A DNA stretch of 60,963 nucleotides from an uncultured Candidatus Saccharibacteria bacterium (lineage in GTDB: Bacteria; Patescibacteriota; Dojkabacteria; SC72), in the NCBI GenBank assembly GCA_964618765.1, contig CAZUDZ010000002.1, positions 3,166-64,128 of the forward strand. The letters are read 5' to 3'. The notes beneath the pieces were generated by a model. That model was given only the letters and a program-made list of their open reading frames with translations. It had not been told where the DNA came from and searched no databases. Made by a program: the position numbers and the translations under genes. Below are positions 25,368-27,644 of this stretch, piece after piece (within the stretch, counting starts at the first letter, position 1; the number at the start of each line of letters is the position of its first letter).

Positions 25368-25769
25368 TTATACCACTAGCTCAAGAAGCTTTTTAACACC
25401 CAAGATTATATATGGCATAAAGACCAACAATCCAGTAATTACAGAGACCAGTGCCGTAACTAAAACTGCGCCAGCACTTACATCTTTAGCATATTTGATA
25501 TTTACTTTGTAATCTAGAGACACAGTATCACAGAGGGCTTCTATCGCACTATTTATCGTCTCCGCTACAAACACCATAGATATTACAAGACTAATGGCAA
25601 TCCAGTCTGTATATGAAATTTGAAAAGCAAACCCTGCTAATATTACAACAAAGGCAACAACAATATCTATTCTAAAATTGCGTTCATTTCTGAATATTAA
25701 CTTAATACCACTACGAGCATGACCTTGGCTTTTAAAAAAACTCTCTGCCTTGTATTTGGGATTTTTCAT
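25368..25769 (-). CDS. dgkA: Diacylglycerol/undecaprenol kinase (DgkA family)
   Basis: ERNFRID, VAETINSAIEALCD and AKDVSAGAVL. The start was trimmed to MKNPK, 2 nt after the last pilin stop. Confidence 0.9.
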   Translation of the reverse strand: MKNPKYKAESFFKSQGHARSGIKLIFRNERNFRIDIVVAFVVILAGFAFQISYTDWIAISLVISMVFVAETINSAIEALCDTVSLDYKVNIKYAKDVSAGAVLVTALVSVITGLLVFMPYIILGVKKLLELVV

Positions 25770-25771
25770 TC

Positions 25772-26128
25772 TTACTTGGATAAGAAATCTATTGACACTC
25801 TTAATACTGCAAATATGACTGATATCACTATCAAACCTATTATTGCCCAAGTAAGTGTCCCTTGAGCCTGCTTAACCCTACTGGGATCCCCTGAGGATAT
25901 AATCCACATATATCCTCCTTGGATTATGAATACTAAAGCAATTAGACCCGCAACTGGAAACAGGTACCCTAAAATCTTGTCAATAAGGGGAGCAAGTTCT
26001 CCCAATCCAGGAGGAGGACCGGAAGTTTCAGAGCCTGAAGGGACATTGGTTGGAGGTAGAGGAGCAGAATAGACAGGGAAGGCTAAAATGAGAGGAAGTA
26101 CATAATATATTTTTGTTAGAAATTTCAT
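25772..26128 (-). CDS. VirB2/TrbC-like pilin (5th of 5)
   Basis: Signal-like N-terminus (VYSA) and IIQGGYMWIISSGDPSRVKQAQGTLTWAIIGL. Confidence 0.8.
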   Translation of the reverse strand: MKFLTKIYYVLPLILAFPVYSAPLPPTNVPSGSETSGPPPGLGELAPLIDKILGYLFPVAGLIALVFIIQGGYMWIISSGDPSRVKQAQGTLTWAIIGLIVISVIFAVLRVSIDFLSK

Positions 26129-26130
26129 CT

Positions 26131-26406
26131 CTATTTAGCTATTAATATTTTCTCTATTATAAACTCAATAATGGTAGGAGACAAGAACACTATTACTAAC
26201 CCTAGTAGAGAAAAAGCTAAAGACCTTGTAGCCTCCTTGACTTTCTCTTCATCCCCCATTGAAAGAATATATTTAAATCCAGCAAGAATTAAAGACACAA
26301 CTACAACCAACACAGATAAGGACATAGCTAGATTTACCACAAAAAATACGAATTCTGATAAATTCCCAAAGCCTGTGTTATTAAAGGTATCTAAGTGTAT
26401 AAACAT
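26131..26406 (-). CDS. VirB2/TrbC-like pilin (4th of 5)
   Basis: LILAGFKYILSMGDEEKVKEATRSLAFSLLGL. Confidence 0.8.
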   Translation of the reverse strand: MFIHLDTFNNTGFGNLSEFVFFVVNLAMSLSVLVVVVSLILAGFKYILSMGDEEKVKEATRSLAFSLLGLVIVFLSPTIIEFIIEKILIAK

Positions 26407-26471
26407 AAGAATCTAATTAATAAATAACCAAGGCAGTGTTATCTCCTTTAACAGCTCCTTTCTTCCCCTTC

Positions 26472-26837
26472 TTATGCTCCGGTCTGAAGAACATTGTTAA
26501 GAACAAACTGTACTAAGATTACAGAAATGAAACAAATTACTAATCCTACAATAGCATAAGTTAATGTCTTTGTAGCCTTCTCAATTTTCTGCTCATCTCC
26601 GGCAGCTGTAATGTATGAATATCCAGCAGCAATTAAGACAACTACACATACTAAAGCTGCTAGAAGAATTACCATGTTTATAACTCTTTTAGCAAGTCCC
26701 ATTACATCTTCACCTTCGTTTAAGGGACTCTTTGGAAGAAATTTTCCTAAACCAGTATCCTGTGCCTTAACAATTCCTGTCCAATACAGAGTGGATACAG
26801 ACCCTGCTACTACTCCTAATGCTTTAGAAATTTTCAT
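26472..26837 (-). CDS. VirB2/TrbC-like pilin (3rd of 5)
   Basis: Signal-like N-terminus (VKAQ) and LIAAGYSYITAAGDEQKIEKATKTLTYAIVGL. Confidence 0.85.
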   Translation of the reverse strand: MKISKALGVVAGSVSTLYWTGIVKAQDTGLGKFLPKSPLNEGEDVMGLAKRVINMVILLAALVCVVVLIAAGYSYITAAGDEQKIEKATKTLTYAIVGLVICFISVILVQFVLNNVLQTGA

Positions 26838-26919
26838 ATATTTTCTATTTATATATTATATTAATGACACAATTATATATAATGATGTGAAAAGTTGCAA
26901 CAGTATATCTAAAACCAAA

Positions 26920-27294
26920 TTAGACCGGTCGAGGGAGCGATCTTCCTTCAGGTGTTGGGTTTGGCATAGGAGCTTCATTCTTAGAATCATTCCCGCTGTC
27001 TCCATTGTTCTGTAAGACATCAAAAACGAAACCCACTATCATTCTTGCTAGAAAAACTATTACCATACCAACAATAGCACCTGTTATGACTTTCTGAGCC
27101 CTCTGAACCTTCTCGGGATCTCCTGCAGAGGTTATAAACATGTATCCTGCTACAACTATAAGTACTACTGCAACAAAGACGGAAAAGTAAATGAAAAAAT
27201 CTATAGCAACCCAAATTCTATCCTTAATTAAGGAATCAACAGAAGCATTTTCCCACTTTATCAATAAGTCGCCTAGACCACTTATAGAAGTCAT
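26920..27294 (-). CDS. VirB2/TrbC-like pilin (2nd of 5)
   Basis: IVVAGYMFITSAGDPEKVQRAQKVITGAIVGM, plus a polar C-terminal tail. Confidence 0.85.
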   Translation of the reverse strand: MTSISGLGDLLIKWENASVDSLIKDRIWVAIDFFIYFSVFVAVVLIVVAGYMFITSAGDPEKVQRAQKVITGAIVGMVIVFLARMIVGFVFDVLQNNGDSGNDSKNEAPMPNPTPEGRSLPRPV

Positions 27295-27296
27295 AG

Positions 27297-27644
27297 TTAG
27301 CTATAGATATTCAAATTTAAACTATCGCTTAGTAAGAGTAGTATAACAACAGATAATACTACAACAAAAAAGCCAATTATTGCGTTCGTTAACACCTCTC
27401 TACCCTCTTTTAGTTTGTCAGGATTCCCTTGGCTAGAGATTAACATGTAGCCTGCATAAACGACCAAAACTACTAGACTAAAGATTGCCGCAGGGACAGC
27501 AACATCTGCGATAGCTCCAACAAATCCCTCTTTGTCTAAATTTTGCTTCTGAAGTGCCTTTAATCTATTCCGAAACTCTTCTCCTAAACTATCCGCATAT
27601 ACTTTACTTACAAATAAGCTGTGTATTTTGTAAATGATATTCAT
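27297..27644 (-). CDS. VirB2/TrbC-like pilin (1st of 5)
   Basis: Signal-like N-terminus (VYAD) and VVYAGYMLISSQGNPDKLKEGREVLTNAIIGF. Confidence 0.85.
   Translation of the reverse strand: MNIIYKIHSLFVSKVYADSLGEEFRNRLKALQKQNLDKEGFVGAIADVAVPAAIFSLVVLVVYAGYMLISSQGNPDKLKEGREVLTNAIIGFFVVVLSVVILLLLSDSLNLNIYS

Follow-up and report, generated by a model that had tools for sequence, protein, structure and literature searches.

Chromosomal type IV secretion systems (T4SSs) that lack a relaxase and carry arrays of divergent VirB2-like pilin genes have been described in Patescibacteria (PMC10633639, PMC12102498, PMC12857230). In Southlakia epibionticum ML1, the T4SS cluster contains six essential PF18895 genes (SEML1_0014-0019; Wang et al. 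2023, PMC10633639), the requirement for epibiotic growth having been shown by transposon sequencing in that species only. The survey of Quinonero-Coronel et al. (2025, PMC12102498) counted 441 arrays in 383 assemblies, with 2-11 genes apiece and an identity averaging 25%; it described VirB2-like pilins together with an MPF-FATA-like VirB4 with TrsD and PrgI, a coupling protein usually encoded far from virB4, and rare relaxases, and it read the Patescibacteria T4SS as non-conjugative. A 2025 review (PMC12857230) adds that the sequence-divergent VirB2-like pilins may form a pilus on a monoderm cell. Here we analyze 60,963 nucleotides of contig CAZUDZ010000002.1 (positions 3,166 to 64,128; hereafter the window) from a Candidatus Dojkabacteria (WS6) bacterium, in which five tandem genes, named pil1 to pil5, have the sequence profile of VirB2-like pilins and precede genes for a dgkA-type lipid kinase and a SpoIID-domain protein. 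An earlier note on this DNA, made from its letters, had stated that such pilin arrays occur in Patescibacteria, and the three publications cited above bear it out. The locus is an example of the published system, a kind already known; its additions to the published description are a fixed five-fold orthology, a pattern of variation at the strain level, and a phylum-wide neighborhood with a SpoIID-led gene cluster.

The array shares with those of other Patescibacteria its PF18895 membership (plus weak PF04956 similarity), its tandem arrangement, low identity (~25%), and chromosomal, origin-proximal position, as well as a VirB4 with TrsD and PrgI/VirB3, the absence of a detected relaxase, and a monoderm ultra-small host. 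It differs from the published arrays in lying ~85 kb from virB4, outside the T4SS cluster, in forming a fixed set of five members with positional orthology across the family, two of them leaderless, and in being followed by genes for SpoIID, bPH, DUF5657, a 756-aa protein, and SmpB, and by a VirD4-like ATPase gene. The idea of host-range versatility put forward in the literature is compatible with the strain variation of pil1-3 and at odds with a conserved division into five.

The five open reading frames (ORFs) lie on the minus strand and occupy 1.9 kb (27644-25772; coordinates of all features are collected in Table 1). As the earlier note had described, they are tandem paralogues with a common core: pil2-pil5 are 23-33% identical to pil1, and all share G-Y/F..I..G-D/N...G, with invariant columns G65, I69, G73, and G91 (pil1 numbering). 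The profile search for T4SS pilin and TrbC families that the note had proposed places all five above the Pfam gathering cut-off for PF18895 (T4SS_pilin; 26.6 bits), with E values from 5.7e-6 to 2.1e-11, and a genome scan finds PF18895 matches in these five only. Matches to TrbC/VirB2 (PF04956) are weak and below cut-off for pil2-pil5 (E 0.0023-0.068), and pil1 has none. The best NCBIfam match of all five is NF045849, the "pilin-like conjugal transfer protein" of mycoplasma integrative conjugative elements (ICEs), whose cut-off only pil3 exceeds. The top scorer throughout is pil3 (PF18895 44.1 bits, TrbC E 0.0023, and NF045849 44.4 bits against a cut-off of 40); pil1 and pil3 also weakly match larger conjugation membrane proteins containing a similar hairpin. 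We aligned 62 sequences, namely 57 database homologues of pil3 and the five window pilins; all 62 match PF18895 and 40 of them also match PF04956 at E ≤ 0.01 (best 6.6e-7). These profile matches support the assignment of the five products as VirB2-like T4SS pilins.

AlphaFold2 models built on this alignment predict for pil3 and pil4 two long helices joined via a 4-residue loop, and so take the form of the helical hairpin whose failure to appear the earlier note had named as grounds for giving up its proposal. In the pil3 model (pLDDT 75) a leader helix and a disordered stretch precede helices 45-77 and 82-120, joined by GDEQ, while the pil4 model (pLDDT 84.5) has helices 16-48 and 53-90. The hairpin loop is short and basic (G-D/N-x-x-K), and the five proteins measure 91-124 aa. 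The N-termini are of two kinds, as had been noted: pil1, pil3, and pil5 have signal-like ends (VYA↓D, VKA↓Q, and VYS↓A, respectively), the pil1 leader being short and weakly hydrophobic, and pil2 and pil4 have no leader and no space for an upstream start. The N-tail of pil4 is acidic and 20 residues long. The pil2 start lies 2 nt past the pil1 stop.

To place the array within its lineage, we compared copy number, as the earlier note had suggested, and gene order. PF18895 proteins were found in 112 of 120 genomes of the order, exactly five copies being present in 69 of these, and in 149 of 151 genomes of a phylum-wide sample, at 1-14 copies; five is the modal pilin count across the order. At 28 loci from four of the order's five families, whose ORFs were scored with the window's proteins, most retain one block order: EndoIV, UvrD-PD(D/E)XK, pil1-pil5, dgkA where present, SpoIID, bPH, DUF5657, the 756-aa protein, SmpB, and the VirD4-like ATPase. 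In a sister order of the class this block recurs, with the VirD4-like ATPase at one end and, at the other, again five pilins, which lie 1.4 kb from SpoIID. A pilin tree of the genomes with exactly five copies requires 10 changes of position label across the order, compared with 64 for shuffled labels. Among 16 genomes of the family each array position forms a single clade with support of 91-99 (99 for position 5), which corresponds to the minimum possible five label changes.

Each position also retains its own N-terminus and length. Position 1 has a short leader ending KAYA, with the motif ..KAYA↓Q/D/S kept in orthologues; position 2 orthologues measure 98-113 aa and have no leader; position 3 carries a canonical Sec leader; position 4 orthologues are leaderless, with an acidic tail, 89-92 aa long (one 99), and begin MF.DL..LNNTGFENL.EF; and position 5 combines a Sec leader with a Pro-rich stretch, reading ...PVFA↓Q/E in most orthologues. 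Within the genus, orthologues of the pilins show 53-67% identity, a level close to that of SpoIID, bPH, and the 756-aa protein and below that of UvrD, EndoIV, and the ATPase; hypervariability between pilin orthologues was rejected on these values. The five are thus old, non-equivalent, positionally orthologous paralogues and not a fast-turnover set. In some genera pil3 is duplicated 2-4 times. Arrays of 6-8 genes occur in some genera (L042 in genome G070, L043 in G062, and L047 in G083); their extra copies match pil3 best, and the paralogues at both ends hold their positions. The hairpin is also found within larger proteins: fused into one of 239 aa whose gene separates dgkA from SpoIID in a Dojkabacteria genome (L048 9360-10079, G098), within 1,239-1,260-aa proteins of other classes (L063 5407-9189; L065 5341-9060), and inside a 3,312-aa open frame in one genome (G208:C1:86515-86718).

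Synonymous sites are saturated at ~60% amino-acid identity, which makes dN/dS between species unsuitable, and single-nucleotide polymorphisms (SNPs) between strains were used instead. Contigs from eight metagenomes carrying the organism were aligned to 12.5 kb (four of these to 7.4 kb only) and yielded 38 distinct substitutions, 34 of them coding. The pilins hold 16 nonsynonymous and 1 synonymous change, and all other genes hold 5 and 12 (Fisher p 2e-4); pil1-3 make up 9% of the coding length and contain 16 of the 34 coding changes (binomial p 1e-8). In pil1 there are two nonsynonymous SNPs, D18N and K29N, just past the leader. pil2 has eight nonsynonymous and zero synonymous changes (21 per kb), seven of them in the C-terminal tail (residues 95-120 of a tail spanning 95-124). 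The five nonsynonymous changes and one synonymous change of pil3 (16 per kb) involve the leader, the inter-helix loop (Q83/E86), and the C-terminus. There is no change in pil4 and one in pil5. Among the neighbors, SpoIID has one change, dgkA has none, and the UvrD-nuclease gene, which served as the control gene for polymorphism, shows a purifying pattern (3 nonsynonymous to 11 synonymous). In VirB2/TraA pili the termini face outward. The earlier note had spoken of variable subunits; this holds for the amino acids of pil1-pil3 between strains and fails for the set itself, whose five members are old, fixed, and positionally orthologous. In the UvrD-nuclease gene, landfill contig X17 carries ~25 substitutions and a compensating 1-bp insertion and deletion within ~140 bp (window 28846-28984) and is identical to the window on both sides, a pattern that resembles a small tract acquired by recombination with a diverged strain.

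RNA contigs point to the array as well. Seven contigs from four metatranscriptome runs match an 8.5-kb stretch at ≥99% identity, and all seven lie within the 1.9-kb array. One is on pil1 (27400-27605), one spans the pil1/pil2 junction (27148-27407), three are on pil3, one of these also spanning the pil3/pil4 junction, and one covers pil4 (26182-26416); on the same stretch no RNA contig lies on UvrD, dgkA, SpoIID, or bPH. Seven of seven contigs in 22% of the length is unlikely to arise by chance and fits abundant structural transcripts. The TATAAT hexamer ahead of pil1 (Table 1) may mark a leaderless-type start of the pilin transcription unit, and an extended -10 element overlapping the dgkA stop precedes SpoIID. 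The promoter-like site in the 82-nt AT-rich spacer before pil3 is only a candidate, because the site total in the region is not above chance (33 found vs. 35 expected in an overall sigma-70 promoter scan). Among related loci, a -10-like hexamer precedes position 1 in 12 of 28 and positions 2, 4, and 5 in 2-3 of 26-28, and of 29 related SpoIID ORFs, 16 have one that ends 4-9 nt ahead of the start. Judged from these motifs, the sequence suggests that the pilins (with dgkA) and SpoIID form separate transcription units.

The rest of the machine is present elsewhere in the genome, and the picture of pilins without it that the earlier note had given no longer applies. VirB4 (821 aa; PF19044 4e-27; L001 7875-10340), a TrsD-like protein (212 aa; L001 10340-10978; NF041427 2.4e-9, below cut-off), and a PrgI/VirB3-like protein (L001 10980-11813; PF12666 2.1e-8) are encoded together on the same contig as the array (G000:C2, ~112.9-116.8 kb), ~50 kb past the window end. 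Within the window lies a VirD4/TrwB-type ATPase that exceeds the cut-offs for both PF02534 (28.7 bits vs. 20.1) and PF10412 (22.7 bits vs. 20.5); its sequence reads as an N-terminal transmembrane segment, an intact Walker A motif GQTGTGKS, and FFYADEF, and its gene closes the conserved block at most of the order's loci, and likewise in the sister order. A second VirD4/TrwB-like ATPase (824 aa) is encoded on contig 1 (L002 7257-9731, +); genes for a LytR_C-domain protein lie on one side of it and YebC/RuvCAB on the other, and no further T4SS gene is close by. The statement that the window contains no relaxase or VirB6-B11 genes stands at the Pfam level for the ORFs surveyed, those of at least 138 aa outside other ORFs and excepting five identified solely by sequence reading, among which no further T4SS family was found and many have no Pfam match; it had missed the VirD4/TrwB-type ATPase at 19423-16907. 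Genome-wide, neither relaxase PF03432 nor Rep_trans PF02486, the only two relaxase profiles run, gave a match at E ≤ 1 in a genome that is 93% complete.

We conclude that the locus is chromosomal because its block of housekeeping and envelope genes keeps one order in most of the 28 loci and lies near dnaA. The array is ~22 kb from the presumed origin/dnaA, on the strand co-oriented with replication, and this position matches the origin-proximal placement of T4SS genes reported across the phylum (PMC12102498). The earlier description of the array as chromosomal and non-conjugative thus agrees with the block synteny, the proximity to dnaA, and the two relaxase profiles without a match, and it is in line with how PMC12102498 reads the Patescibacteria systems. 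DnaA-box-like 9-mers in the window number 34, vs. 18.7 expected, with small groups at 47884-48124 and 49221-49693; these counts are modestly above chance, yet the window scan does not pinpoint oriC.

The pilins can also be set beside those of better known systems. With Agrobacterium VirB2, RP4 TrbC, and F TraA (PF04956) they share small size, two hydrophobic helices, and a short basic loop, a cleavable-type leader (predicted) in three of five, and the weak but recurrent profile similarity described above (40/62, best E 6.6e-7). They differ in that neither sequence searches nor Foldseek link them significantly to a solved pilin, in being five paralogues instead of one gene, and in a setting with no outer membrane and no VirB5, VirB7, VirB9, VirB10, or VirB11 context. 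The Mbov_0395/MMCAP2_0565 protein of mycoplasma ICEs (NF045849) is the best NCBIfam match for all five and likewise belongs to a monoderm MPF-FATA-type machine, the presumed source class of Patescibacteria VirB4; it is, however, a single gene in a mobile element with relaxase-type transfer function, and four of the five pilins here fall below the family cut-off.

The earlier note had described the pilins as coupled to undecaprenol kinase. The last pilin stop (25774-25772) does lie 2 nt before the dgkA ATG (25769), with the coiled-coil SpoIID gene next, as had been reported. The product covers profile positions 2-102 of 102 of PF01219 at 110.8 bits (cut-off 22.3), a family membership that fits undecaprenol kinase and diacylglycerol kinase alike. 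dgkA lies between pil5 and SpoIID at 7 of the 28 loci of the order, and its gap to pil5 is -20 to 0 nt in the seven related loci having it; so close or overlapping a placement makes its translation from the pilin transcript probable. Across the 120 genomes of the order, a single dgkA is present in 87 and absent in 33. It adjoins the array only in genera g1, g3, g11, and g19, is distant or on another contig in g9, g10, g12, g14, g15, g16, g18, g20, and g21 and in family f2, and was found at none of 64 loci of other classes nor at one sister-order locus. The linkage is a recent relocation or lineage-specific insert without conserved functional coupling, and the association seen in the window is a local accident of gene order in four genera. 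A general link in which the lipid kinase feeds a lipid-containing pilus was rejected on the same distribution.

The SpoIID protein has a more general association with pilin arrays. Its matches exceed the cut-offs for PF08486 (4.7e-15; 56.4 bits vs. 23) and TIGR02669 (96.3 bits vs. 83.3), and it weakly matches the PcsB family. This genome has one SpoIID gene, and the family occurs in 93 of the 151 genomes of the phylum sample. Its ATG (25360) lies 7 nt past the dgkA stop, and it is the next recognized gene after the array at 28 of 28 loci of the order. Throughout the order, and in many classes besides, the bPH protein comes next. Searches of Pfam, NCBIfam, and PDB sequences gave no match for the 756-aa protein, and all 68 homologues found are unannotated. 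The cluster of SpoIID, bPH, (DUF5657), a 540-900-aa single-pass protein, and SmpB extends from Dojkabacteria to many Patescibacteria classes (loci L087, L088, L104, L105, L107, L113, L117, L122, and L124). A search centered on SpoIID covered 40 loci in 39 genomes of ~35 other families and found pilins within 9 kb, in either orientation, at 12 of them; at five of the 12 an array of 2-9 genes directly adjoins SpoIID and is transcribed away from it, the spacers measuring 46-155 bp (L087, L113, L117, L118, and L124, with overlapping ORF calls in L117). Full-length orthologues (E ≤ 1e-50, ~560-650 aa) have pilins within 7 kb at 8 of 14 loci, and a ninth (L121) has SpoIID ~2 kb from PrgI-TrsD-VirB4. 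Other one- or two-copy families (VirD4-like, VirB4, UvrD, EndoIV, and dgkA) occur at 0-1 of the same 40 loci. These data show that the neighborhood of SpoIID and pilins is real and phylum-wide. In L121 (G216:C15:34000-49283, another class) the genes run UvrD-nuclease, SpoIID, PrgI, TrsD, VirB4, joining contexts that are ~85 kb apart here. Family f22 (L082, L084, L095, L096, and L097) encodes two SpoIID-domain proteins; the long paralogue (1,140-1,306 aa, weak match) lies ~2 kb from a divergent 2-3-gene pilin array, and the standard ~600-aa one lies elsewhere. No literature joining SpoIID with Patescibacteria was among the top full-text search results, and the main text of the 2025 survey (PMC12102498) mentions neither Dojkabacteria nor SpoIID nor dgkA.

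Table 1. Features of the window discussed in the text (positions are those of the window).
Feature	Position	Strand	Remarks
Tyrosine recombinase gene	15858-16745	+	directly beside the VirD4-like ATPase gene, opposite strand
tRNA-Ile(UAU) gene	16798-16873	-	directly beside the VirD4-like ATPase gene
VirD4/TrwB-type coupling-protein-like ATPase, 838 aa	16907..19423	-	PF02534 8e-7, PF10412 5.2e-5, NF045973 1.1e-11
756-aa single-pass membrane protein, unnamed family	20324..22594	-	conserved in block across phylum
DUF5657 small membrane protein, 88 aa	22596..22862	-	PF18901 1.3e-8; conserved in block
bPH_2-domain membrane protein, 211 aa	22862..23497	-	PF03703 E 2.9e-4, 21.5 bits, just under 22-bit cut-off
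Membrane-anchored coiled-coil SpoIID-domain protein, 612 aa	23522..25360	-	signal anchor, ~220-residue coiled coil, SpoIID domain
TGgTATAAT (extended -10), TATAAT part	25367..25372	-	ends 6 nt before SpoIID ATG; contains dgkA stop
dgkA-type lipid kinase (diacylglycerol or undecaprenol kinase family), 133 aa	25368..25769	-	PF01219 3.3e-32
pil5, VirB2-like pilin, 118 aa	25772..26128	-	PF18895 41.1 bits; Sec-type signal peptide, then Pro-rich segment
pil4, VirB2-like pilin, 91 aa	26131..26406	-	PF18895 40.5 bits; without leader
pil3, VirB2-like pilin, 121 aa	26472..26837	-	PF18895 44.1 bits; canonical Sec-type signal peptide
TTGCAA-17-TATAAT, promoter-like candidate	26872..26900	-	in 82-nt AT-rich spacer before pil3
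pil2, VirB2-like pilin, 124 aa	26920..27294	-	PF18895 35.0 bits; without leader
pil1, VirB2-like T4SS pilin, 115 aa	27297..27644	-	PF18895 26.7 bits, barely over 26.6 cut-off
TATAAT	27652..27657	-	ends 7 nt before pil1 ATG
UvrD-type helicase fused to PD-(D/E)XK nuclease, 1039 aa	27667..30786	-	conserved upstream neighbor, context only
dnaN, dnaA, yidC, jag/khpB	46553-52033		mark replication-origin region

The remaining context can be given briefly. The genome comprises 737 kb in 27 contigs; homologues bear the names Candidatus Dojkabacteria and candidate division WS6, and DNA near-identical to the locus is present in anaerobic-digester, bioreactor, wastewater, and landfill metagenomes. Within the UvrD helicase gene, ~35 bp at window 30060-30105 are matched by many unrelated metagenome contigs that diverge beyond it; this is a helicase motif highly conserved at the DNA level and not a repeat of the host genome. 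The tyrosine recombinase is probably of the housekeeping XerC/D type and not part of an integrated element, because the block is syntenic across the order.

Based on the profiles, the conservation of positions, and the strain and RNA data, we regard it as probable that the array encodes pilin-like subunits of the chromosomal relaxase-less T4SS typical of Patescibacteria, whose several types would co-assemble or divide labor in a fibre or conduit. Each pilin would insert into the cytoplasmic membrane as a hairpin with both termini outside and the basic loop inside, pil1, pil3, and pil5 after leader cleavage at the predicted sites, and pil2 and pil4 without a leader, via short acidic N-tails. 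The VirB4-TrsD-PrgI core would extract this membrane pool and polymerize it into a surface fibre or a wall-spanning conduit for host contact or exchange. Because the types are individually conserved and differ in their leaders, they would not be interchangeable but would co-assemble or divide labor; pil3 is the candidate main subunit, with the others accessory, since it scores highest against the family profiles, is covered by the most RNA contigs, is duplicated in some genera, and is polymorphic. The outward-facing termini of pil1-pil3 would diversify between strains. dgkA would be an operon passenger in a few genera, and the coiled-coil SpoIID protein a plausible, putative wall-opening partner.

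Several points weigh against this proposal. To our knowledge, a filament of PF18895 proteins has never been observed in any organism; the idea of a fibre is carried over from VirB2, TraA, and archaeal Ced/Ted pilins, and co-assembly of five types is deduced from conservation only. The ~85 kb between the array and VirB4 is a further difficulty, as is the finding that TrbL/VirB6 (PF04610) has no match in the genome; VirB6 is similarly scarce in some classes of the published survey, where the scarcity is attributed to divergence (PMC12102498), and we therefore do not count it among the defining components. Foldseek searches of the PDB with both pilin models returned nothing at E ≤ 0.001 (best E 0.7 and 2.0, generic helical hairpins only), and a profile search of PDB sequences recovered designed proteins only and no pilin. 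The two-helix hairpin is too generic a fold for structural searches to be informative, and pilin homology therefore rests on the profile matches. No RNA contig lies on pil5, and the RNA evidence, assembled mixed-community contigs, is a crude measure without quantitative depth. The SNP set is small (38 sites) and called from contigs; the pilin ratio of 16 nonsynonymous to 1 synonymous change is barely above the neutral ~3:1 (p ~0.05), and the seven sites in the pil2 tail may mean that this tail is simply unconstrained. As the ratio is only marginal and the tail perhaps unconstrained, we read the pil1-3 pattern as relaxed or diversifying selection on the termini.

Instead of working together, the five could be interchangeable pilin versions, mainly one of which is used per cell or strain, for host matching or for escape from phage or host recognition, as PMC12102498 suggests by analogy with Bartonella and Anaplasma. 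Such alternative use would accord with the low pairwise identity (23-33%), with the 2-4-fold duplication of pil3 in some genera and the 1-14 copies across the phylum, and with the focus of nonsynonymous strain polymorphism on pil1-3. We nevertheless consider it unlikely, given that the array positions correspond to distinct, old orthologue groups, each with a characteristic leader type and length and two with no leader, that five copies recur in 69 of the 112 PF18895-bearing genomes of the order, that pil4 and pil5 are nearly invariant between strains, and that transcripts of pil1-pil4 were all found, on contigs spanning pil1/pil2 and pil3/pil4. Rather doubtful, in our view, is the idea that no extended pilus is made and that the proteins remain in the membrane or only build a short stalk, or line the T4SS channel, across the wall. 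The assignment of the machine to the monoderm MPF-FATA type (PMC12102498) fits this idea. The weak matches of pil1 and pil3 to larger conjugation membrane proteins with a similar hairpin point the same way, and so does the closest NCBIfam family, a pilin-like protein of mycoplasma ICEs. We are not aware that mycoplasma ICEs make pili, and we know of no pilus in Gram-positive T4SSs; VirB2 is needed for substrate transfer even without pili. On the other hand, the structural genes outnumber other T4SS parts and stand out in the RNA contigs, which fits a polymer better, the strain-variable termini suggest surface exposure, and archaeal Ced/Ted systems form VirB2-like pili on cells without an outer membrane. 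An origin of the array in a chromosomally integrated conjugative plasmid or ICE, whether as a part or as a remnant of it, was rejected as highly improbable. VirB2-like pilins and VirD4-like ATPases are typical of conjugative elements, and a tyrosine recombinase (15858-16745, +) and tRNA genes adjoin the ATPase gene; however, gene order is kept in most of the 28 loci (four families) and in the sister order, with EndoIV, UvrD, and SmpB flanking, no composition anomaly is present, PF03432 and PF02486 are without a match, and PF18895 is nearly universal in the phylum sample (149 of 151 genomes).

The role of the SpoIID cluster is a separate matter. By analogy, SpoIID could supply a VirB1-like wall-opening function, which we consider because VirB1 homologues are rare in the phylum (PMC12102498). 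Like VirB1, PrgK, TcpG, and TraG, it is a predicted peptidoglycan-cleaving-type enzyme encoded beside T4SS structural genes. Bacillus SpoIID is a lytic transglycosylase, with the same chemistry as VirB1. The SpoIID protein of the window differs from those hydrolases in its SpoIID/LytB fold, which is neither SLT nor CHAP, and in its long N-terminal coiled coil, its membrane anchor, and its own promoter here. On a broader version of this idea, which we hold tentatively and with less than even confidence, the array would be half of a larger conserved Patescibacteria envelope module with the SpoIID-bPH-DUF5657-~600-900-aa cluster, in which SpoIID would act like VirB1, the other three would be wall-spanning or assembly parts, and the pilins would form a heteromeric five-subunit fibre with tips under diversifying selection. 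We judge it evenly balanced whether, instead, the array, SpoIID, bPH, DUF5657, and the 756-aa protein are neighbors through inherited gene order near the origin, SpoIID being a wall hydrolase of growth or division without a T4SS role. Inherited order would explain why SpoIID is single-copy here and found in 93 of 151 genomes, why the cluster includes smpB, a translation-rescue gene without an envelope role, and why SpoIID has its own -10 element and no RNA contig while the pilins are covered. A test centered on pilins also favors it: at 20 large arrays of other classes SpoIID lay within 8 kb of none, five of these arrays adjoin VirB4-TrsD-PrgI, and several of the 20 genomes have no SpoIID or a different SpoIID subtype. 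The weak PcsB-family match and an architecture like that of PcsB and EnvC (coiled coil plus hydrolase) agree with such a housekeeping role, and the text-form part of the Southlakia supplementary files lists no SpoIID for the essential T4SS locus. Inherited order accounts less well for pilins within 9 kb at 12 of 40 other-class loci, often divergent, compared with 0-1 of 40 for comparable families, for the SpoIID ~2 kb from PrgI-TrsD-VirB4 in L121, for family f22, in which the long second paralogue and not the standard one adjoins the array, and for the rarity of VirB1 homologues (PMC12102498). Since smpB is in the cluster, SpoIID has its own promoter, and those Southlakia files list no SpoIID, its role is worded with caution here. 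Of the co-expression with envelope remodeling functions that the earlier note had proposed, the SpoIID neighborhood holds, and across the phylum; SpoIID, however, has its own -10 element and may be transcribed apart from the pilins.

A large part of the diversity of uncultured bacteria belongs to Patescibacteria, which live attached to host cells; the chromosomal T4SS with its pilin array is among the few machines shown, for one cultivated species, to be essential to this way of life. That a whole class keeps five fixed, non-equivalent subunits argues for co-assembly over simple antigenic choice, and strain variation on three of the five pilins, mostly at their termini, points to the parts that face outward. 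The recurrence of pilin arrays beside the SpoIID-led cluster in many classes names candidates for the missing wall-crossing parts of this system.

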